Shown one piece after another: positions 2,093 to 42,731 of a stretch of 64,000 bases of DNA. This DNA comes from a phage, in sequence record PX880103.1. The stretch is one strand, 5' to 3'. Numbering within the stretch: position 1 is the first letter of the stretch; each line of letters opens with the position of its first letter. The notes beneath the pieces were generated by a model. The model made no database searches. It was not told the DNA's origin and was given only the letters and a program-made list of their open reading frames with translations. The position numbers were made by a program, and so were the translations under genes.

Positions 2093-2372
2093 ATTGAATC
2101 ACCTTCAGTTGACGTTTTAATTCTTTTATCATTTCTTCGTTCATCGCAATATAAAGATCGCGTAAAGCAGGTTTTAGCATTCCATTTACTGGAGAACTAA
2201 ATGGGCACACATAATCTTTTCCTACGAGCTTTTTAGTGAATTCCATATTACAGAACTGAAATGCCGGTTCATTGGCATAAATTCCCCATTTGGTTGACAT
2301 CATTTTATTAGCATATTCCAGCGCCTGGATTTGATTCATAATTCCATCAATTTGAAACTGTTTAATATTCAT
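2076..2372 (-). CDS. Hypothetical protein (98 aa)
   Basis: ORF track; tightly packed with neighbours. Confidence 0.5.
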   Translation of the reverse strand: MNIKQFQIDGIMNQIQALEYANKMMSTKWGIYANEPAFQFCNMEFTKKLVGKDYVCPFSSPVNGMLKPALRDLYIAMNEEMIKELKRQLKVIQFGQGN

Positions 2373-2833
2373 TAGTAAAGGTCCTCAGAGTAAAGTTCTT
2401 TTTCACTACCACCACGTTCAATACGTACTTGTCCAGCGTAAGTTGCAATAATCATTGCTTCTTCACGTGTCCAATAATTACTATATTGGTCAATAAACCC
2501 TTGGTCATCATCACAAACTTGCTGAGTAACTAATTGAGATTTAACTACATCTAAAACTTCTGCCATATCTTTAGAATAATGACGAGCACCTGGAATAATA
2601 AGAGTTCGTCCATCTTTTAATTTAAAACGGTTGGCTGCACAGACAATTCGTCGTTGATACTTTTGGTTTTCATCCCAGTACGCAGTCTGCCAACAAATTT
2701 CAGGAACTTCATCTAAAACATTTTGTTCTGTATATTCACCACCGTGAGAAGCTAATTTAGCAGCCAGACTTTCCGGAGTCTCACGCGACAAAGCTTTATC
2801 TAACAGAGCTAAACGTTCTTTAAAAGTTTTCAT
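2372..2833 (-). CDS. Hypothetical protein (153 aa)
   Basis: ORF track; stop/start overlap with flanking ORFs. Confidence 0.55.
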
Positions 2834-3159
2834 TTAAACCATCCTTTAATACGTTGCCACAAAGTTTTCTGTTGAGCTTTGTTAACACCAATTGAGCGAA
2901 TAACTGGTTGAGATTCCTGGAATTCTTTATAATCAGCAAGGTAAATTTCGTAAGCTGCATCCGTAAAGGAACTTATCGCTGCCATAAAATTATTGCGAAT
3001 ACCTACTGGAGCATCTTTACTTTCACGAATAATCATGTATTTACCAGTCTTAATCTTTACAATAGTTCCAAGATAAGCTCCATGGTACCAAATATCCCAA
3101 CCCTCTTGAGTAGGTTCTGCGCAACGACGAAGTTCATTAACAATTTCTAACTTGTTCAT
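2830..3159 (-). CDS. Hypothetical protein (109 aa, motA.1 position)
   Basis: ORF track; 4-nt overlap with upstream gene. Confidence 0.55.
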
Positions 3160-3169
3160 TATTTATTCC

Positions 3170-3805
3170 TCACAGTTCAGATGCTACAGTGATTACAGCT
3201 TCAATGTTTTCTGCCGAGCGTTTAATATCAAGATACACATTACCGTTTTTAGCGATTTTACATGACATTCCGATATCAGTAAATTTCTGAATATGATGTT
3301 CCATCATTTTGTATCCAAAAATTCGCATATTTCCATTATTGTTAATTTCAAAATTACGAATTCCGTGAGTGCGTTTTTCTAAAATAGCAAGATAGTTACT
3401 GCGATAAGTTTCAACCTTTTTAAGAACAAATCCATTTTCATCTAAAAGTTTTAACATGAGGTCTTTATCTTCTTCCATATCGGAAGTAATCTCACGAGCT
3501 TTACGAGTTGCTCGTTTTTTCAGCAGTTCCGGAGCATTTTCCTGTGCATATAAAGTTGCTGCATTTGAAATAATATCTTGAGCTTCACCAGTAATGATTA
3601 ATCCATCACCAGATTTCTCCACTAGGCCTTTTTTAATCAATACCCCAATATTACTATTAACTACCGCGTTACCTAAATCTGGATGCACCTCACGAACTTC
3701 TGCGGCTGTAATGAAATCTTTCTTAGCAATGGTAATTAAAATCGCAGCAGTTTTTTCATTCAGAACATCGTTAGAAGCTTTGATGATGTAAGTTACTTTA
3801 GACAT
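3170..3805 (-). CDS. motA: Middle-transcription activator MotA
   Basis: 211 aa, the size of T4 MotA; ATG confirmed at 3803-3805 behind a GGAG SD in the conserved leader. Confidence 0.9.
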   Translation of the reverse strand: MSKVTYIIKASNDVLNEKTAAILITIAKKDFITAAEVREVHPDLGNAVVNSNIGVLIKKGLVEKSGDGLIITGEAQDIISNAATLYAQENAPELLKKRATRKAREITSDMEEDKDLMLKLLDENGFVLKKVETYRSNYLAILEKRTHGIRNFEINNNGNMRIFGYKMMEHHIQKFTDIGMSCKIAKNGNVYLDIKRSAENIEAVITVASEL

Positions 3806-4085: not shown

Positions 4086-5410
4086 TTGATTTCCTCTAAA
4101 TCTTTGGTGTATTCAGTAACTACATCAGTAGTTTTCCAATATTCGTTTTCTTCTTTTTTAGCTTTAGCTTCTTCAGCAAGTTTCTTTGCTTCATCGGAAG
4201 TCATATGAAAAATATTCATTCCAACTAGTTTATCAACATAAGAAGAATACATATCGATTTTCGAAAGTTCTTCGGTCAGTTCTTTACGAGTTTTACCCTG
4301 TACAACAATTTCACCTGAAATTACTTTCTTAATGAAATGTGCCTTGGCAAAGGCTAAACGAAAAGCTGACTCAGTTTCTTTAATTTTGTTATCAATTCGT
4401 TTTTGGACATAAGTTTTACGAACTTCAACAAAGTCTTTAATTAAATCAACTACGTTATCGTAAACTTGTAGTTTTCCTTTCTCATTAATAACCGTAATAT
4501 TCTGAGAACGACGCTCAATCAACCCGAAGTCTTTCATAATTTTTGCATGGCGTTCTTCTTCGTTATCGCTCAAAGAGTATTCTTTGCGGAATTTAACTTT
4601 GAAGCCAAAACCATGCTCACCACAAGCATCATCCCATGTAATGAAGCCTTTATCTTCAAGTGGGTCTAAGATTTTACTCACATAAGTTTCACGATCATAC
4701 TTGTACGGAATCTCAGTGATATGCATTTGAGTTCGTGAAGTAAACTTATATGTTCCACGAATTTCATATTGCCCATCAATTTCAACGACTTCACCGCGAA
4801 ATTCTGGGAATTCTACCTTCGGTTTAGTTACTTTCTTTCCTTGAAGAGCTTGCAGTACAGCTTTCTTGACAGAAGAAACACTATGAGGAAGAATGTAAGT
4901 TGCATAACCAGTTGCAATACCGGAAACGCCATTAAGAAGAACAGTAGGAATAATAGGCAAATAGAAAGCAGGCGGAATGTGTTCTTTATCTTGATGTACC
5001 GGAGCATATTCAGTATCTTTATATACGTTATAGAAATTTTTACTTACACGAGCAAAAATATAACGACTTGCTGCTGCTTTTTGAACGGTACGAGAACCAA
5101 AGTTTCCTTGACCATCTAACAGAGGAAAGTTATTATTCCAGGTGTTAGCCATCAAAGCGCCCGCATCTTGTGCAGAGTTTTCGCCATGGTGATATCCAAG
5201 GTCCGCTACACCACCTGCGATAGAAGCGAGTTTGTGAAACTTATCTTTATTTCCTCGCGCCAAATCAAGAGCTCGAGCAATAACAAATCGTTGAACTGGC
5301 TTAAATCCATCAATCATATTTGGAATAGCACGATTTTCAACCGTGTACATAGCATAAGCCAATGCTTCATTATCAATGATACTTTTTAAATCGCGATTAT
5401 TCAGTTGCAT
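4082..5410 (-). CDS. 52: DNA topoisomerase II medium subunit gp52
   Basis: 442 aa as in T4 gp52; GyrA-like breakage-reunion sequence; ATG confirmed. Confidence 0.95.
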   Translation of the reverse strand: MQLNNRDLKSIIDNEALAYAMYTVENRAIPNMIDGFKPVQRFVIARALDLARGNKDKFHKLASIAGGVADLGYHHGENSAQDAGALMANTWNNNFPLLDGQGNFGSRTVQKAAASRYIFARVSKNFYNVYKDTEYAPVHQDKEHIPPAFYLPIIPTVLLNGVSGIATGYATYILPHSVSSVKKAVLQALQGKKVTKPKVEFPEFRGEVVEIDGQYEIRGTYKFTSRTQMHITEIPYKYDRETYVSKILDPLEDKGFITWDDACGEHGFGFKVKFRKEYSLSDNEEERHAKIMKDFGLIERRSQNITVINEKGKLQVYDNVVDLIKDFVEVRKTYVQKRIDNKIKETESAFRLAFAKAHFIKKVISGEIVVQGKTRKELTEELSKIDMYSSYVDKLVGMNIFHMTSDEAKKLAEEAKAKKEENEYWKTTDVVTEYTKDLEEIK

Positions 5411-16756: not shown

Positions 16757-17440
16757 TTATCGTTTTGTTGGAAGAGATAGAGGATCGCATTCTTCCTCTG
16801 ATGGAGCATCTTCGAGACCCATAGCATATCGCAAAGCATACTTCATCATCAGAATATCTTTCGCACAGTCATGAATAGAATCATGCGCAACAAATCCATC
16901 TAAGGTTCCTTTTGGAAGAGGGCACGTGGTCATATCACGAACAAGCAGAAGTGCTTCAATTCTGGTACGAATATCACGCTGATTCCAGAATTTACATGGT
17001 TCTAACTTAAATGTGTCAAGCTCATTCTCAGAAACGCCGTTAAGACGTTGAATATCGCGAATGAGATCGACTAAAATTGGAAAATCAAACGACATTCCAC
17101 GGCACCAACCTTGAGATTTCCAAGGATCGATATTATGCGCATTGATGTAATCATTAAATTTTGCAATACCATCGATAGTACTTACATCTTCATCGGATGG
17201 TGCAATATTTTTTCGAGCTTCAGGAGATTGATTTTTCCACCATTCGATAGTGCTTTTAGTAAAAAGACGATGTCCTTTTTGGCTTTTTAAATCAAATTTG
17301 ATTTTAATGCCACGTGAAACTAATTCATCGAATGTTTCAACGACTTCTGGATTAGGGTCAAAAGCAATTACAGCCAAATCAATAACAGCTGCTTTTTCAC
17401 CACTTCCCATTGTTTCAAAATCTATAATAAAATCAAACAT
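16757..17440 (-). CDS. dexA: Exonuclease A (DnaQ-like 3'-5' exonuclease)
   Basis: 227 aa as in T4 DexA; N-terminal DxE motif (DFETMG); ATG confirmed. Confidence 0.85.
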   Translation of the reverse strand: MFDFIIDFETMGSGEKAAVIDLAVIAFDPNPEVVETFDELVSRGIKIKFDLKSQKGHRLFTKSTIEWWKNQSPEARKNIAPSDEDVSTIDGIAKFNDYINAHNIDPWKSQGWCRGMSFDFPILVDLIRDIQRLNGVSENELDTFKLEPCKFWNQRDIRTRIEALLLVRDMTTCPLPKGTLDGFVAHDSIHDCAKDILMMKYALRYAMGLEDAPSEEECDPLSLPTKR

Positions 17441-17682: not shown

Positions 17683-17920
17683 TAATAACCGCCTTATAAA
17701 GATGGCTAATTTCACCTAAAACATAATCACTGATTGTAACAGTTTTTACTTCACCACAAAAGAATTCTAACGCAATTAAATCTCGTTCAATTTCTTCTAA
17801 TTGAAGCATTAACTTGCCTGATTCAGTTTTCACGTTTTTGCGATTTTTACTATAAGCTAATTCATAAATTTCATTTACTTTATCTTGAAGAAGATAAAAC
17901 TGATCTTTAGTTATTTCCAC
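17675..17920 (-). CDS. Hypothetical small protein (about 81 aa), member of a tandem trio
   Basis: GTG at 17920 with GAGGAAG SD (track start is TTG); C-terminus TISDYVLGEISHLYKAVIND. Confidence 0.45.
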   Translation of the reverse strand: MEITKDQFYLLQDKVNEIYELAYSKNRKNVKTESGKLMLQLEEIERDLIALEFFCGEVKTVTISDYVLGEISHLYKAVIND

Positions 17921-18167
17921 GAATAGCTTCCTCAAATTTAATTAGTAATTTACAGACACTTTCATCTAGTGTAATTACCGTATCTGTATTACTGTGATAT
18001 GATTGTTTTTCAATTCGTTTAATTGCTAATATAGTATCACTTATAAGATAAAGCTTATGAAGGAGCTCAGCTCCTGTTACCATAACATCGAGATTATCTT
18101 GCTTATTAGTATGCTTCCTTATACCATCTATTAGACGATTTAAATATTTTGAATTGATGTTAATCAT
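17907..18167 (-). CDS. Hypothetical small protein (86 aa), member of a tandem trio
   Basis: ORF track; similar length and charge pattern to the two downstream ORFs. Confidence 0.5.
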   Translation of the reverse strand: MININSKYLNRLIDGIRKHTNKQDNLDVMVTGAELLHKLYLISDTILAIKRIEKQSYHSNTDTVITLDESVCKLLIKFEEAIRGNN

Positions 18168-24370: not shown

Positions 24371-24889
24371 TCAATAACCTCGGTCTTGACGAGCGAAGTT
24401 TTCAGCATTTTTCAGATAATAAAGTTTAAAGATTTCTTCAGCCGTAAGACCGAGACCTTGGAACATGTTCAGAACGAAATGAAGAATATCAATCATTTCG
24501 AATTTAATTTCCAACTGGTCTTGTGGAGATAAGTCAGTAATCAGAGTTTCACGACGTTCACCGTGTTGCGACTTCCAAGGCTTCCATACAGCAGATGCAT
24601 CTTTTTCGCCATTGCTCATACCACCAAGAGAAGTCAGAAGTTCGCGGAATTCATCATCAATATAATCTTTCTGATTACGCAGCCAATCAACAACTTCACC
24701 TGCAGTAGCCAAATCATCAGGATGACGGTTATATTCAGGTTTATCTTTAGCTAAACGAACCTGCAGAGATTTCTGCATATCAAGCATAACTTGCAACGGA
24801 TCTTTTTCATCACCGAGAATATCCCAGTATTCATTTTGAGCTTTATCAGCGCCTTCGATCAGTTGACTACATTCGTTGAAATGTGGCAT
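24371..24889 (-). CDS. 56: dCTP pyrophosphatase (dCTPase/dUTPase) gp56
   Basis: 172 aa as in T4 gp56; MazG-like acidic motifs; ATG confirmed. Confidence 0.85.
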   Translation of the reverse strand: MPHFNECSQLIEGADKAQNEYWDILGDEKDPLQVMLDMQKSLQVRLAKDKPEYNRHPDDLATAGEVVDWLRNQKDYIDDEFRELLTSLGGMSNGEKDASAVWKPWKSQHGERRETLITDLSPQDQLEIKFEMIDILHFVLNMFQGLGLTAEEIFKLYYLKNAENFARQDRGY

Positions 24890-24890
24890 G

Positions 24891-25541
24891 TTATTTTTCC
24901 TTTCTTATGAAGTTTTCTATCATATGTCTATAGCAGATATTAGGATAACCTGCCTTGACAGCTATTTTATTAAATTTTGTGCGCTTAGGTCTATTATTAT
25001 AAACCCATAATTCATAAAGCGCATCATAACTATTCCATATTTCTCCTCGCCTAGGATTTGGTAAACCATATCGAGGTGAATTTTTACCGCTAAATCTTCC
25101 TTTTCGGGCTTTACTCATATTAGCCTTGGCTTCATCGGATATAATTTTACCTTTATGAGCTAGACGCATTTTGGCTTTAGTTTCTTCTGGGGTCTTTTTG
25201 CCTTTAATCCATGACGGCTTGCCATATCTAGGATTATTTTCACCCGAGAAAAGAACAGAGTTTTGGATTTTAAGGGTTTCTATTAATCTACTTGTTAATT
25301 TAACACCTTTATTATATCGCATTAAATTTACAGCATAATGCAATCCTCTCACATCTGGATATATTTTAGTTAATAATCTATGAGCTATAAAATGCTCACG
25401 CGCAGTTAACTCAACAAGATTGTTTTTGTCATCTGCTCCTCCTATACATCTAGGAATTATATGATGGCGTTCTTTATATCCGCCAAGATGCCGGCATTTA
25501 GCTTTTGTAATTAAAGCCGAGTAAATTTTTTGGTAATTCAC
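24891..25541 (-). CDS. Free-standing HNH homing endonuclease with NUMOD-like repeats
   Basis: GTG start with AAAGGA SD; HNH core GGYKERHHIIPRCIGGADDKNNLVELTAREHFIAH; repeated GxNxPxYGK / K(A/G)K motifs; C-terminus paralogous to 41877..42731. Confidence 0.75.
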   Translation of the reverse strand: MNYQKIYSALITKAKCRHLGGYKERHHIIPRCIGGADDKNNLVELTAREHFIAHRLLTKIYPDVRGLHYAVNLMRYNKGVKLTSRLIETLKIQNSVLFSGENNPRYGKPSWIKGKKTPEETKAKMRLAHKGKIISDEAKANMSKARKGRFSGKNSPRYGLPNPRRGEIWNSYDALYELWVYNNRPKRTKFNKIAVKAGYPNICYRHMIENFIRKEK

Positions 25542-25574
25542 ATATATCCTTTCAATTCATGGGTTAGTAGATTA

Positions 25575-25598
25575 ATTATACAATAAATATATAAAGCA
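25575..25598 (-). promoter_or_regulatory. Middle-promoter-like element (TGCTTTA, 11 bp, TATAAT) upstream of the HNH gene
   Basis: Minus strand tTGCTTTAtatatttattgTATAAT; overlaps the plus-strand AATAAATA box of the divergent small ORF. Confidence 0.45.
25582..25589 (+). promoter_or_regulatory. Late-promoter-like AATAAATA box upstream of plus-strand ORF 25612..25812
   Basis: 7/8 match to TATAAATA, about 22 nt before the ATG; strong AAGGAGGA SD follows. Confidence 0.3.
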
Positions 25599-25611
25599 AT
25601 AAGGAGGACAT

Positions 25612-25812
25612 ATGGTACAAAAATTAATGGCACTTGTTAATGCCATCAAAGGTAATAAGAAACGTATAGCTTTTACTATTTCTGCTATGGTAGGAATTTT
25701 ACTCTGGAATTTTGTTTTATCGCCAATTGCTATTGCTCATGGCGTTAATATTCCAGTAATTACTCTTGATACATTCGTAGATTTAGCATTTGCTTTAGTT
25801 GGGTTAATTTAA
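25612..25812 (+). CDS. Small membrane protein (66 aa), plus-strand
   Basis: Strong SD AAGGAGGA 6 nt before ATG; two hydrophobic segments; the only plus-strand ORF inside the minus-strand early block. Confidence 0.5.
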   Translation: MVQKLMALVNAIKGNKKRIAFTISAMVGILLWNFVLSPIAIAHGVNIPVITLDTFVDLAFALVGLI

Positions 25813-26837
25813 ATCTTAGCATATTTAGATAGCCGCATTTTAGCCATCAACCCTTGAGCAATATTATTTTTCATATATTCCATAATTTGTTCAGGGGTTG
25901 CACCTTCCTTTCTAATCATATCATTAACATCTTTTGATTTCCAGGGAGATTTGTCCCAAAACATAACCCTTTCTCCTGCATCAACTAATTTAGTCATTCG
26001 TTTAATAGTGTCAGGGTGACGAGGTTCATTATCTAAAACCCATACACGTCTATCTTTAAATGGAACAATTTCTAGGTCTAATTGACCACCCGTAATAGCT
26101 ATACCATTTTCAATAAAAAGTGAATCTATAGGTCCTTCTAGAACATATACATCACCATCTTTAACTCGTTCGACTCCATATATTTTTGTTGCCTCAGGAT
26201 AAGCTTTAATGGTGATATATTTTTGGGGAGCATCTTTCTTTAATGCACGTCCTTGAAAAGACTCAGCTTTTCCATTAGCATTATAAATTGGAATAACAAG
26301 ACGAGGCTCAGAAATTTCCTTTTTATATGTTCCCGGTGCTATGCTATTAACCAATTTAGGCCATTCGGTTGTAAACCAAAGATATTTCCATTTATCCTTT
26401 GGAATACAACGAGCTTTTACATATTTTATAATTGGATGGTCTTCCGTCAGTTTATCTAATCTAACACATGACGGAAGAGATTTAATTATTTTCTTCTCAG
26501 GTTGTTTAGGAAGTTCTTTAGGTTTTTCTACTGGACGACTTTTACCTTTTTCTTTTCTTATTTCAAAGATATACTCACGATATAAATCAGGTTCAAACTC
26601 CTTTAAATATATTCCGATTGGTGCATGATAGTTGCAGTTATAACAATGAATATTTCCTTCATTATTATCACCATAATACCATCCACGAGCTTTATTCTGG
26701 TCGGTTTTTGAATCTCCACAAACAGGGCATCTAAACCGTAATTTAAAAGTTGAACTATTATTTACTTGTGTGAATTTAGGTAAATGAGCTAATGCACGAT
26801 ACGCAAACTCATTATCAATCCAAGGTATTGATGACAT
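25809..26837 (-). CDS. 61: DNA primase gp61
   Basis: 342 aa as in T4 gp61; N-terminal zinc ribbon CPVCGDSK...CYNCNYH; ATG confirmed. Confidence 0.9.
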   Translation of the reverse strand: MSSIPWIDNEFAYRALAHLPKFTQVNNSSTFKLRFRCPVCGDSKTDQNKARGWYYGDNNEGNIHCYNCNYHAPIGIYLKEFEPDLYREYIFEIRKEKGKSRPVEKPKELPKQPEKKIIKSLPSCVRLDKLTEDHPIIKYVKARCIPKDKWKYLWFTTEWPKLVNSIAPGTYKKEISEPRLVIPIYNANGKAESFQGRALKKDAPQKYITIKAYPEATKIYGVERVKDGDVYVLEGPIDSLFIENGIAITGGQLDLEIVPFKDRRVWVLDNEPRHPDTIKRMTKLVDAGERVMFWDKSPWKSKDVNDMIRKEGATPEQIMEYMKNNIAQGLMAKMRLSKYAKI

Positions 26838-41876: not shown

Positions 41877-42731
41877 TCACAATGAAGAAAATTCTTTAAC
41901 TAAAGCCTGTAATGAAGCCTCTATTGGATATCCATTCTTAACTAACATTTTTCTAAACATCACATGTTTAGGACGATTATATGATATCCACAATTCATAC
42001 AATTTATCTTTATTATCCCAATGATAGCCTTTTCGTCGAGACGCTATATGAGCTTTTCTAATCTCCGGATTTTTCCAACTAGCAGCTACTGAATTTGATA
42101 TAGCTATTTTATATTCAGGTTTTGATAAAGCAGCACGAACAGCCTTTTGGTGTTTAATTTTATTTTCTTCGTTATTAAACCATTCCCTTGAAGCCATTGA
42201 AATTTTTTGTTTTGTTTTAAAATTATTTAATCTTTCTTTGTTATCTTTCCTATTTTTTGCTACTGAAAAATATTTTAATGCCCTTTCTCTAGCAGCATTT
42301 CTATTTTGTGGATTTGAATAATACTGTTGAAGCCTTTTTGATATTGTGTCACTTACATCCTGTCTTATAAAACTATATTCAGCAGCTATTAAATCAACTT
42401 CGGCTAAAGATAAATTTTTATATGTTTTTCCTGACATCATTCTATTTAAAGCATTTAGCATTTTTCCATTTTTACCTTTTGCTAATAAGAAATGTGCTTT
42501 GAAATGATTAAAATGACTTAAATTAACTAAATTCCATGTAGATTTTAAATATTCAGGAAATATTGATTTAGGAAGCACGTGGTGTGCTTCCGTTTTACCT
42601 GGAGTTTTAACAGTTGAATTCATAGAAATAAAATTAATGTAAGACTTGGCGTCTTCTTCACTCAACGCTAATTTTTCAACTAATTCCTTTATTAAAAATT
42701 CATCATTAATATCAAGTTTAAAATTCTTCAC
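41877..42731 (-). CDS. Free-standing HNH homing endonuclease (second copy)
   Basis: 284 aa, GTG start with AAAGGA SD; HHVLPKS...HFNHFKAH core; C-terminus KDKLYELWISYNRPKHVMFRKMLVKNGYP parallels the 24891..25541 protein. Confidence 0.7.
   Translation of the reverse strand: MKNFKLDINDEFLIKELVEKLALSEEDAKSYINFISMNSTVKTPGKTEAHHVLPKSIFPEYLKSTWNLVNLSHFNHFKAHFLLAKGKNGKMLNALNRMMSGKTYKNLSLAEVDLIAAEYSFIRQDVSDTISKRLQQYYSNPQNRNAARERALKYFSVAKNRKDNKERLNNFKTKQKISMASREWFNNEENKIKHQKAVRAALSKPEYKIAISNSVAASWKNPEIRKAHIASRRKGYHWDNKDKLYELWISYNRPKHVMFRKMLVKNGYPIEASLQALVKEFSSL

Follow-up and report, generated by a model that had tools for sequence, protein, structure and literature searches.

Gene organization of the gene 56–gene 61 interval

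The window analyzed here is a 64,000-nt stretch of a Tequatrovirus (sequence record PX880103.1). In this window, an HNH/NUMOD3 open reading frame (HNH ORF) and a small membrane-protein ORF (small ORF) lie between the dCTPase gene 56 and the primase gene 61. The features of the locus are as follows (minus and plus denote the strand).

24371–24889, minus: gene 56 (dCTPase), 3′ of the HNH ORF and predicted to be co-transcribed with it
24891–25541, minus: HNH/NUMOD3 ORF, 216 codons, GTG start, putative Mob-family homing endonuclease
24898–24904, minus: downstream copy of the 7-bp direct repeat GAAAGGA, in the last HNH codons (AGAAAGGAAAAATAAC ATG); gene-56 Shine-Dalgarno sequence
24905–25553, equally 24898–25546, minus: 649-bp insertion relative to empty-site relatives, essentially comprising the HNH ORF and a 5-nt leader
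25547–25553, minus: upstream copy of GAAAGGA, the resident gene-56 Shine-Dalgarno sequence, now apparently serving the HNH ORF (GAAAGGATATAT GTG)
25575–25598, minus: candidate MotA-type middle promoter of the P56 type; TGCTTTA (25598–25592), 11 nt, TATAAT (25580–25575)
25582–25589, plus: late-promoter-like AATAAATA, within the spacer between the MotA box and TATAAT and ahead of the small ORF; resident, outside the insertion
25601–25608, plus: Shine-Dalgarno sequence of the small ORF, AAGGAGGA
25612–25812, plus: small membrane-protein ORF, 66 codons, phrog_2024, RB32ORF030w type; resident, outside the insertion
25614–25649, minus: intrinsic-terminator-like hairpin with T run, antisense to the 5′ end of the small ORF
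25809–26837, minus: primase gene 61

The small ORF and the HNH ORF are separated by an intergenic region of 70 bp (25542–25611), not by the 40 bp given in the initial annotation, and the small ORF is convergent with gene 61, which it overlaps by 4 nt. Both the 66-codon plus-strand membrane ORF with its strong Shine-Dalgarno sequence and the MotA-box TGCTTTA-N11-TATAAT overlapping the late-promoter-like motif are present as that annotation described, the two motifs being candidate promoters. Additionally, in line with the reported lack of methyltransferase motifs in the interval, tblastn with T4 Dam revealed no homologue anywhere in the 64 kb (best E = 0.63) and no DPPY motif lies inside any long ORF. 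As for the arrangement given for T4, dam is indeed located between 56 and 61, but gene 69 (now segF) is found between soc and 56. The hairpin at 25614–25649, at whose equivalent position a terminator is annotated in fPS-2, would stop the gene-61 transcript just ahead of the middle promoter.

The HNH ORF product resembles Mob-family endonucleases

The HNH ORF carries KERHHIIPRCIGGADDKNNLVELTAREHFIAH, and the motif G(E/K)N(N/S)PRYG occurs in it twice; its product is divided as follows.

Residues ~22–57: HNH core
Residues ~100–165: NUMOD3 repeats
Residues ~166–215: helical C-terminal module

The HNH catalytic motif of the beta-beta-alpha-metal type is present with its conserved His, Asn, and His. 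Residues H26, H27, N41, H50, and H54 are invariant across 75 homologues, and the structure model shows a beta-beta-alpha core with pLDDT above 90. NUMOD3 (PF07460) matches two stretches of the HNH ORF with 29.3 bits (cut-off 20.4), while the Pfam HNH model (PF01844) reaches 18.8 bits and stays under its gathering threshold of 21.4. This sub-threshold score concerns only the generic Pfam model, and most of the Mob-like homologues examined are likewise annotated with NUMOD3 alone. NCBIfam provides a model for neither the HNH protein nor the small-ORF protein.

In BLASTP searches, the protein shows 45% identity to T6 MobE over residues 1–165 (E = 3e-36) and 35% identity to RB7 MobD over the full length (E = 2e-35); it also matches the 'homing endonuclease' family phrog_655 (E = 1.3e-59). 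These matches bear out the initial reading of the 216-codon, GTG-start ORF as an HNH homing-endonuclease gene. An identical protein is already deposited in GenBank as "homing endonuclease"; G4498 and fPS-90 encode this identical protein, and one GenBank record calls the ORF 'putative mobile endonuclease D'. The similarity to MobE of T4 and T6 (nrdA/nrdB) covers the complete HNH core as well as the first NUMOD-like repeats, whereas the C-terminal third is unlike. In contrast, the C-terminal module W..YD.LY.LW...NRPKR..F.....GYP...Y is common to the HNH ORF product and MobD of T4 and RB7 (nrdC.11/mobD.1), although the latter occupies another locus and its central repeat region has diverged. MobD has no known target (PMC2988022).

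Similar to the DNA-binding modules of I-HmuI and I-TevI, which are extended minor-groove binders of the NUMOD3 type, the HNH ORF product passes the NUMOD3 threshold, and a search with the family profile hit 1I3J, the DNA-binding domain of I-TevI (E = 0.006). However, the HNH ORF is not intron-encoded, and the catalytic domain of I-TevI is of the GIY-YIG type and not HNH. Sequence and fold searches gave no significant whole-model match to solved homing endonucleases and did not retrieve I-HmuI; among them were PDB sequence searches with the HNH protein and with the family profile. The ORF is intergenic, lying in neither a group I intron nor an intein, and the corresponding empty site consists of nothing more than an intergenic leader. 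Collectively, these comparisons indicate that the product is a free-standing homing endonuclease of the Mob family and a putative nuclease. It is an ordinary, previously uncharacterised example of the known Mob-type endonucleases.

With a dN/dS of 0.06–0.19, the HNH ORF is under strong purifying selection. Such selection might also mean that the protein owes its retention mainly to a host-beneficial or regulatory role and not to active homing, for example, to exclude competitors by cutting gene 56 without efficient self-transfer, or to bind the leader or promoter and thereby tune HNH and gene 56, as I-TevI does at its operator. Such a role would agree with the autorepression documented for T4 intron endonucleases (PMC2988022), with the half of the conserved GAATTGAAAGGA leader that is kept upstream of the HNH start, and with the in-frame HNH-gp56 fusions found in two database entries. 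However, an active homing enzyme equally predicts purifying selection, and the horizontal spread described below means that the gene does move; we consider it unlikely that such a role is the main reason for retention.

Boundaries and distribution of the cassette

The insertion was delimited by comparison with relatives that lack it. In-silico removal of 24905–25553 created an 80-nt junction with an exact match in Shigella phage Sf23 and in phage CHD94UKE2, and the alignment with pSs-1 shows a gap identical to the 649-bp insertion. Because of the terminal repeat, the coordinates can be written in two ways. The junctions are identical in six HNH-positive genomes, and empty sites equal to the precise deletion product occur in at least 24 records. 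The empty allele carried by the majority is distinguished by a 2-nt 'ac' and by nt 4–12 of gene 56, which rules out simple deletion of the cassette as its origin.

Among approximately 790 phage records with the locus, the cassette is found in approximately 58. It forms a 649-bp presence/absence polymorphism among otherwise near-identical genomes, and its distribution is sporadic, with close relatives lacking it, as expected of the insertion initially proposed. Moreover, the cassette is found in both dam-positive and dam-negative contexts with identical junctions; in IME537 and ELT1, dam, or dam and another gene, lies between the HNH ORF and the small ORF. HNH homologues with identities down to 56% are located directly 5′ of the gene-56 homologue at all 10 loci compared. 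The cassette of the Jiaodavirus L048 shows 90.5% nucleotide identity to that of the window, with identity rising and falling abruptly where the HNH ORF begins and ends, whereas the surrounding sequences share only 65% (gene 61), 46% (small ORF), 54% (intergenic region), and 75% (gene 56). Furthermore, segments of the cassette differ in their closest relatives, which indicates recombination between cassette variants. Taken together, the comparisons indicate that the cassette moves horizontally.

The same distribution might instead be explained by an HNH gene that was ancestral at this site and was lost repeatedly, with vertical descent and deletion in place of homing. Precise deletion could readily proceed through the 7-bp direct repeat, and the empty sites of the precise-deletion type are compatible with such losses. 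Nevertheless, vertical descent does not agree with a cassette more similar between genera than the flanking essential genes (65–75%) and bounded by sharp steps, with identical junctions in two upstream contexts, with recombination between variants within the cassette, or with the different sequence of the majority empty allele. Repeated loss is therefore very improbable as the origin of the pattern.

The promoters and the small ORF appear to be resident

The MotA middle-promoter consensus is (a/t)3TGCTTtA at 12 ± 1 bp from TAtaaT (PMC2988021). The site at 25598–25575 on the minus strand, which reads ATTTGCTTTA, 11 nt, TATAAT, agrees with this consensus, spacing included. MotA-type patterns occur 18 times in the window versus 5.1 expected, so the motif is present beyond chance, and in fPS-2 the site is annotated as a 'predicted middle promoter'. 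T4 P56/69, near oriA, has been mapped experimentally with a start site at 16813 (PMC2988021). This start falls 7 nt past the aligned TATAAT, and the transcription start in the window is predicted near 25568. The MotA box, the −10 element, and the leader are positional homologues of those of P56/69; in contrast to T4, 649 bp of endonuclease gene lie between promoter and gene 56 here. The middle promoter is also present in the HNH-less pSs-1 and others. In pSs-1, gene 56 lies immediately behind it, and the intergenic region matches in promoter, late motif, and Shine-Dalgarno sequence. These alignments identify the site as the likely resident gene-56 promoter, the positional homologue of T4 P56/69, and this putative MotA-dependent promoter would drive the HNH ORF, gene 56, and probably soc. 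Unlike mobE, the cassette contains no detectable internal terminator or embedded promoter for the downstream gene; no MotA-type site and only weak sigma-70-like matches at background rate were found in it. Therefore, expression of gene 56 needs read-through. A 10-bp complementarity, by which read-through RNA could hide the ribosome-binding site of the HNH ORF, is probably fortuitous, being missing in the dam-positive context.

On the plus strand, AATAAATA matches seven of the eight positions of the late element TATAAATA, which in T4 late promoters lies approximately 6 nt upstream of the start site. The motif N-ATAAATA is kept in all 14 homologous loci at 12–22 nt 5′ of the start codon with differing flanks, and its first base is not T in any of them. 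ATAAATA is depleted approximately 6-fold in the window (7 copies versus 40.8 expected), which makes each remaining copy informative; another copy, just before the soc-like gene, is part of a complete TATAAATA. The small ORF itself shows a dN/dS of 0.12–0.36 and a hydropathy peak of 1.96 at residues 19–37, and the Sf23 annotation lists its product as a predicted membrane protein. Together with N-ATAAATA, it is conserved in the 14 loci, which include T4 and other genera. In T4 (NC_000866), it occupies approximately 17738–17935 on the plus strand, and the T4 RefSeq record leaves it unannotated. The literature on small or unannotated T4 ORFs yielded nothing relevant to it, and a five-genome comparison of T4-like phages does not mention the locus. 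The small ORF is probably expressed late.

The HNH-less phages pSs-1, L004, L006, and Sf23 have the small ORF together with the entire intergenic region in almost unchanged form. Thus, the stable conserved block that had been named beforehand as speaking against a mobile insertion with its own regulation was found for the small ORF and the intergenic region, both in pSs-1 and across the 14 loci. A self-contained mobile module comprising the HNH ORF, the small membrane ORF, and the overlapping promoter pair, replacing dam, is suggested by the compact adjacency of these elements and by the missing dam in the interval and the entire window, but we regard it as already refuted by the presence of the small ORF in T4 and, with the intergenic region, in HNH-less phages, by the dam genes that part HNH from the small ORF in IME537 and ELT1, by the sharp drop in identity right outside the HNH ORF in the Jiaodavirus, and by the homology of the promoter to T4 P56/69. 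Comparison of the interval with relatives did delimit an insertion, as anticipated, yet at 649 bp it leaves out the small ORF and the promoters that had been assigned to it. Collectively, the alignments show that the mobile unit is the 649-bp promoter-less ORF only; outside it, the middle promoter and the small ORF with its putative late promoter belong to the conserved resident sequence.

The gene-56 allele and the candidate target

The first 34 nt of gene 56 are common to all six genomes with a 92–100% version of the cassette. In comparison with pSs-1, the differences in gene 56 cluster at nt 4–12, and none occur at nt 200–519. The first 12–34 nt of gene 56 (ATGCCACATTTC...) thus appear to be an allele that travels with the HNH cassette. 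The encoded MPHFNEC was also considered as a strict cassette marker and rejected. This allele also occurs in at least 24 records without the cassette, and three diverged cassette variants adjoin MAHFNEC alleles; consequently, the polymorphisms fix neither the target nor the basis of immunity. Among the empty sites, that of pSs-1 is of the MAY type and that of Sf23 of the MPH type.

The gene-56 initiation region, GAATTGAAAGGA...ATG GCN CAY TTY AAY GAR TG, is conserved across genera, and the cleavage target in HNH-less phages is probably the gene-56 start region. A precedent is provided by SegF of T4, whose gene lies between soc and 56. It is likewise a free-standing homing-endonuclease gene abutting gene 56, a mosaic gene-56 segment is tied to each endonuclease, and cleavage of T2 gene 56 by SegF is proven (PMC2988022, Table 1). 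In contrast to the HNH ORF product, SegF is an unrelated protein of the GIY-YIG type, and its gene abuts gene 56 on the other side, at the 3′ end; it is absent from the window (best tblastn E = 0.7).

A more speculative reading, which we regard as possible but somewhat doubtful, is that the endonuclease recognises the gene-56 initiation region and that the 2-nt 'ac' insertion and the changes at nt 4–12, which give A2P and Y/H3H in the near-universal MAHFNEC, amount to an immunity allele that the selfish gene has imposed on an essential enzyme. If true, SegF, the HNH cassette, and another HNH gene located at the 3′ end would split gene 56 into independently homing modules, and the insertion would shift the primer promoter of the T4-type oriA by 649 bp relative to where it normally lies. 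The RefSeq entry for T4 places oriA 22 nt inside gene 56, so that this point is moved away from the promoter here.

Proposed mechanism and implications

Weighing the above, we consider it likely that the locus carries a promoter-less 649-bp homing cassette of the Mob type, placed in the gene-56 leader between the resident promoter and ribosome-binding site and the gene-56 start codon, with the nuclease action inferred. Seven free-standing endonuclease genes of T4 are promoter-less cassettes on upstream host promoters (PMC2988022). MobE offers a parallel in organization: it is free-standing, promoter-less, co-transcribed with neighboring host genes, and directly 5′ of its target gene, as the HNH ORF would be with respect to gene 56, although MobE belongs to nrdA/nrdB. 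Its gene precedes nrdB, and the enzyme nicks T2 nrdB at nt 122–126, in the 5′ part of that gene (PMC2790892).

In the proposed mechanism, transcription from the resident P56 would produce an HNH-56(-soc) message. The endonuclease would be translated, probably at a low level, from its GTG start behind the old gene-56 Shine-Dalgarno sequence, and gene 56 would be translated by means of the second Shine-Dalgarno copy in the last HNH codons. During mixed infection, the enzyme may nick or cut cassette-less DNA at or near the conserved gene-56 translation start, and recombinational repair would copy the cassette and approximately 12–34 nt of the gene-56 5′ end into the recipient. Finally, recombination between the 7-bp repeats could excise the cassette precisely.

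The main gain is a corrected annotation logic: the endonuclease is a passenger that brings no promoter, and both the promoter pair and the small ORF count among the conserved resident features of T4-like phages, in agreement with what is established for the seg and mob genes. As a by-product, a conserved gene for a 66-residue membrane protein missing from the T4 reference annotation is brought to light. The locus adds one more homing endonuclease at gene 56, already the proven target of SegF. Moreover, the empty MAY/MAH sites, the occupied sites, the empty MPH sites, and the inter-genus copy provide a natural series for the cycle of gain, spread, and loss.

Organization of the gene 56–61 locus

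Based on its sequence, the phage is T4-like and belongs to the genus Tequatrovirus, and the 2.6 kb around the locus is 97–98% identical to Yersinia phage fPS-2, Escherichia phages IME537 and G4498, and many others. The ORFs of the initial annotation are all present, and its promoter motifs occur at the claimed places; the intergenic region between the divergent ORFs measures 70 bp, compared with the 40 bp given there.

Features of the locus
24371–24889, minus strand: gene 56 (dCTPase)
24891–25541, minus strand: HNH ORF, 216 codons, GTG start
25575–25598, minus strand: MotA-type middle promoter, TGCTTTA-N11-TATAAT
25582–25589, plus strand: late-promoter-like AATAAATA, within the MotA-box/-10 spacer
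25612–25812, plus strand: small ORF, 66 codons, preceded by AAGGAGGA
25624–25649, minus strand: terminator-like hairpin and T run, antisense to the 5' end of the small ORF
25809–26837, minus strand: primase gene 61

The absence of dam was confirmed, as neither a Dam homologue nor a long ORF with DPPY was found across the 64-kb window. In T4, dam does occupy the 56–61 interval, as the initial annotation states; gene 69 (now segF), also placed there, instead lies between soc and 56.

The HNH protein belongs to the Mob family

Sequence comparisons identify the 216-aa protein as a Mob-family free-standing HNH homing endonuclease. It contains the HNH core quoted initially and two G(E/K)N(N/S)PRYG motifs, passes the Pfam threshold for NUMOD3, and scores 18.8 bits against Pfam HNH, just below the 21.4 cut-off. 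It shares 45% identity with T6 MobE over residues 1–165 (E = 3e-36) and 35% with RB7 MobD across its full length (E = 2e-35), and it matches phrog_655, "homing endonuclease", at E = 1.3e-59. Approximately 2,700 homologues were found at E <= 1e-5, the majority annotated with NUMOD3 alone, and His26, His27, Asn41, His50, and His54 are invariant in an alignment of 75 of them. Moreover, dN/dS among the variants is 0.06–0.19, indicating purifying selection.

In the AlphaFold model (mean pLDDT 78; >90 at residues 1–70), the HNH motif is predicted to form two strands followed by a helix. Fold searches returned local likeness only, to the HNH cores of Cas8-HNH, GVE2 HNH, and McrA, and I-HmuI was not among the matches. 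With the family profile, matches were obtained to the HNH domains of McrA and of a group II intron maturase and, through the NUMOD3-like repeats, to the DNA-binding domain of I-TevI. The gene is a member of a well-known kind, already so annotated in many records; GenBank holds the identical protein as "homing endonuclease" from phage G4498 and others.

A second Mob-like HNH ORF (284 aa; 41877–42731, minus strand) is flanked by the genes for the gp46-like and gp47-like recombination nucleases. Its product has 28% identity with the 216-aa protein, and the two have a common C-terminal W..LYELW..NRPK...GYP module.

The insertion consists of the ORF only

The initial annotation proposed a compact mobile insertion that carries its own regulation and includes the small ORF. 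The mobile endonuclease gene is borne out by close relatives without the ORF and by identity steps at the cassette ends; the other two elements are not part of the insertion. Shigella phage pSs-1 has no HNH ORF; there, a 71-bp intergenic region separates gene 56 from the small ORF, and gene 61 follows. This region matches window 25542–25611 nearly base for base, and the MotA box, the -10 element, AATAAATA, and the Shine-Dalgarno all fall within the alignment. Because pSs-1 keeps the intergenic region and the small ORF without the HNH ORF, the insertion is the ORF only.

Removal of 24905–25553 (649 bp) from the window yields an 80-nt junction that has exact matches in Shigella phage Sf23 and in phage CHD94UKE2. 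Both cassette ends carry the 7-bp direct repeat GAAAGGA (coding strand). Upstream, the repeat is the resident Shine-Dalgarno of gene 56, now serving the GTG of the HNH ORF; the downstream copy, inside the final HNH codons (AGA AAG GAA AAA TAA C ATG), serves gene 56. Two 390-aa database proteins (P0141, from Shigella phage SSE1, and P0142) are in-frame HNH-gp56 fusions (...FIRKENNMPHFNEC...) that arise by the loss of one A from the junction GAAAAATAAC run; they may be genuine or may stem from a sequencing error in the homopolymer.

The middle promoter is resident

The window contains 18 copies of the MotA-type pattern where 5.1 would be expected, and the motif is thus more frequent than by chance. 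The site agrees with the published consensus (a/t)3TGCTTtA, 12+/-1 bp from TAtaaT, and the fPS-2 RefSeq record annotates a "predicted middle promoter" at the same place. Its positional homologue is the T4 middle promoter P56/69, whose start site was mapped at 16813 (Table 1, PMC2988021), 7 nt past the aligned TATAAT. Similarly, gene 56 of HNH-less phages in other genera is preceded by MotA-box and -10 arrangements. Collectively, these comparisons indicate that the predicted middle promoter is resident and was not delivered by the cassette, which in this phage puts 649 bp between it and gene 56. According to the T4 RefSeq record, oriA lies 22 nt into gene 56 and has the P56/69 transcript as its primer RNA; a review mentions some evidence that the oriA primer depends on MotA (PMC3016281).

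A leader, (A/C)TGAATTGA(A/T)AGGA (25545–25562, minus strand), is conserved just 5' of gene 56 in several T4-like genera and forms a two-codon mini-ORF, ATG AAT TGA, in many of these phages; its possible roles are those of a translational operator or of the homing site. In the minus-strand RNA of 25541–25615, a 10-bp pairing is possible between CAUAUGUCCU, the antisense of the small-ORF Shine-Dalgarno and start, and AGGAUAUAUG, the HNH-ORF Shine-Dalgarno and start. It can form only in gene-61 read-through transcripts, not in middle-promoter ones, and is missing in the dam+ context; the fold of the whole region has z = -2.2. The hairpin at 25649–25624 probably ends the gene-61 transcript just ahead of the middle promoter.

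The small membrane ORF is resident as well

Homologues of the small ORF adjoin gene 61 at the 14 loci examined, including HNH-less phages, which places the small ORF outside the insertion as a resident gene. In the dam+ phages among them, dam, with or without a 186-codon ORF, lies between the small ORF and the HNH gene or gene 56. Identity is 37–54% in other genera and 94% in T4, where the 66-aa homologue occupies 4239–4436 (plus strand) of the compared locus, ~NC_000866.4 17738–17935, within the 310-bp dam–61 gap. The T4 RefSeq record annotates no feature between dam and 61, and no NCBI accession exists for the exact T4 protein.

A strong Shine-Dalgarno and N-ATAAATA 12–22 nt upstream are kept in every homologue, and the flanking sequence varies. 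ATAAATA, the T4 late-promoter core, occurs 7 times in the window compared with 40.8 expected from shuffles. The heptamer is thus under strong avoidance except at functional sites, and its presence here, like that of the MotA-type pattern, is more than chance; another copy, TATAAATA, lies 5' of the soc-like late gene. Furthermore, dN/dS is 0.12–0.36, and residues 19–37 form a hydrophobic segment. The small ORF (phrog_2024) therefore most likely encodes a real, late-expressed small membrane protein.

Evidence for mobility

The HNH version at >=80% identity is present in ~58 phage records, compared with ~790 carrying the locus. Identical cassette junctions occur behind the small ORF (window, fPS-2, 235Ecol030PP) and behind dam (IME537, ELT1). 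In Klebsiella phage 15882-6-1 (Jiaodavirus), the cassette is 90.5% identical to the window at the nucleotide level, compared with 65% for gene 61, 46% for the small ORF, 54% for the intergenic region, and 75% for gene 56. Identity rises from ~0.65 to >0.9 at the HNH start and falls from 0.98 to 0.68 just within gene 56. Isolates and metagenomes supplied homologues at 80%, 79%, and 56% identity, which also lie directly 5' of a gene-56 homologue, as in 10/10 loci. The HNH gene (24891–25541) is itself mosaic: its 5' catalytic part has the Jiaodavirus copy as closest relative (97–100% identity), and its central NUMOD3 part has a VR5-like copy (97–100% identity), which suggests domain-level recombination among the variants.

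The dam cassette is also presence/absence polymorphic. IME537 (2178–3517 of its locus) and locus L005 carry dam and the 186-codon ORF, T4 retains a 21-codon remnant of that ORF (4149–4211 of its locus), and the window and pSs-1 have neither. In one metagenomic locus (L036, 1500–5700; IMG/VR UViG 2974741249), the HNH cassette is followed by two copies of gene 56, the first short and divergent (139 aa) and the second truncated at its 5' end (residues 39–172), and then by another HNH ORF (265 aa) and soc; gene 61 is fragmented with an internal duplication. This layout could be an endonuclease-linked rearrangement or an assembly artefact.

Candidate target site and relation to T4 homing genes

MobE nicks the 5' region of its downstream gene (PMC2790892), and by analogy the cut site probably lies in the 5' region of gene 56. 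The first 34 nt of gene 56 (ATGCCACATTTCAACGAATGTAGTCAACTGATCG) and the 2-nt "ac" before its ATG are common to 6/6 genomes with the 92–100% cassette version. The pSs-1 and window genes differ at nt 4, 7, 9, and 12 (A2P, Y3H) and are identical over nt 200–519; the differences next to the cassette have the appearance of a very short co-conversion tract or of an immunity allele. However, because the MPH allele (N-terminus MPHFNEC) also occurs without the cassette and three diverged cassette variants adjoin MAHFNEC alleles, the picture is not clean. The cassette-less MPH records, at least 24 in the dam- context and a few in the dam+ context, may have lost the cassette precisely via the 7-bp repeat or may represent target sites that are still naive. 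For the recognition site, the obvious candidate is the conserved GAATTGAAAGGA leader together with the near-universal sequence coding for M-A-H-F-N-E-C.

Among phages otherwise 98–99% identical, gene 56 shows strong mosaicism; between the window and T4, gp56 identity is 73% and gp61 identity 99%. Gene 56 is a proven SegF target (PMC2988022), and SegF lies at the opposite end of the gene from the HNH cassette. The T4-type 3' part of gene 56 moves together with segF; in CHD94UKE2, for example, both occur with an MPH 5' end. In fPS-2, a further 278-aa "HNH endonuclease" overlaps the gene-56 3' end by 11 bp, the same overlap as that of segF. Finally, seven free-standing endonuclease genes of T4 are cassettes that lack a promoter and become part of an existing host transcript (PMC2988022), and the HNH cassette agrees with this rule.
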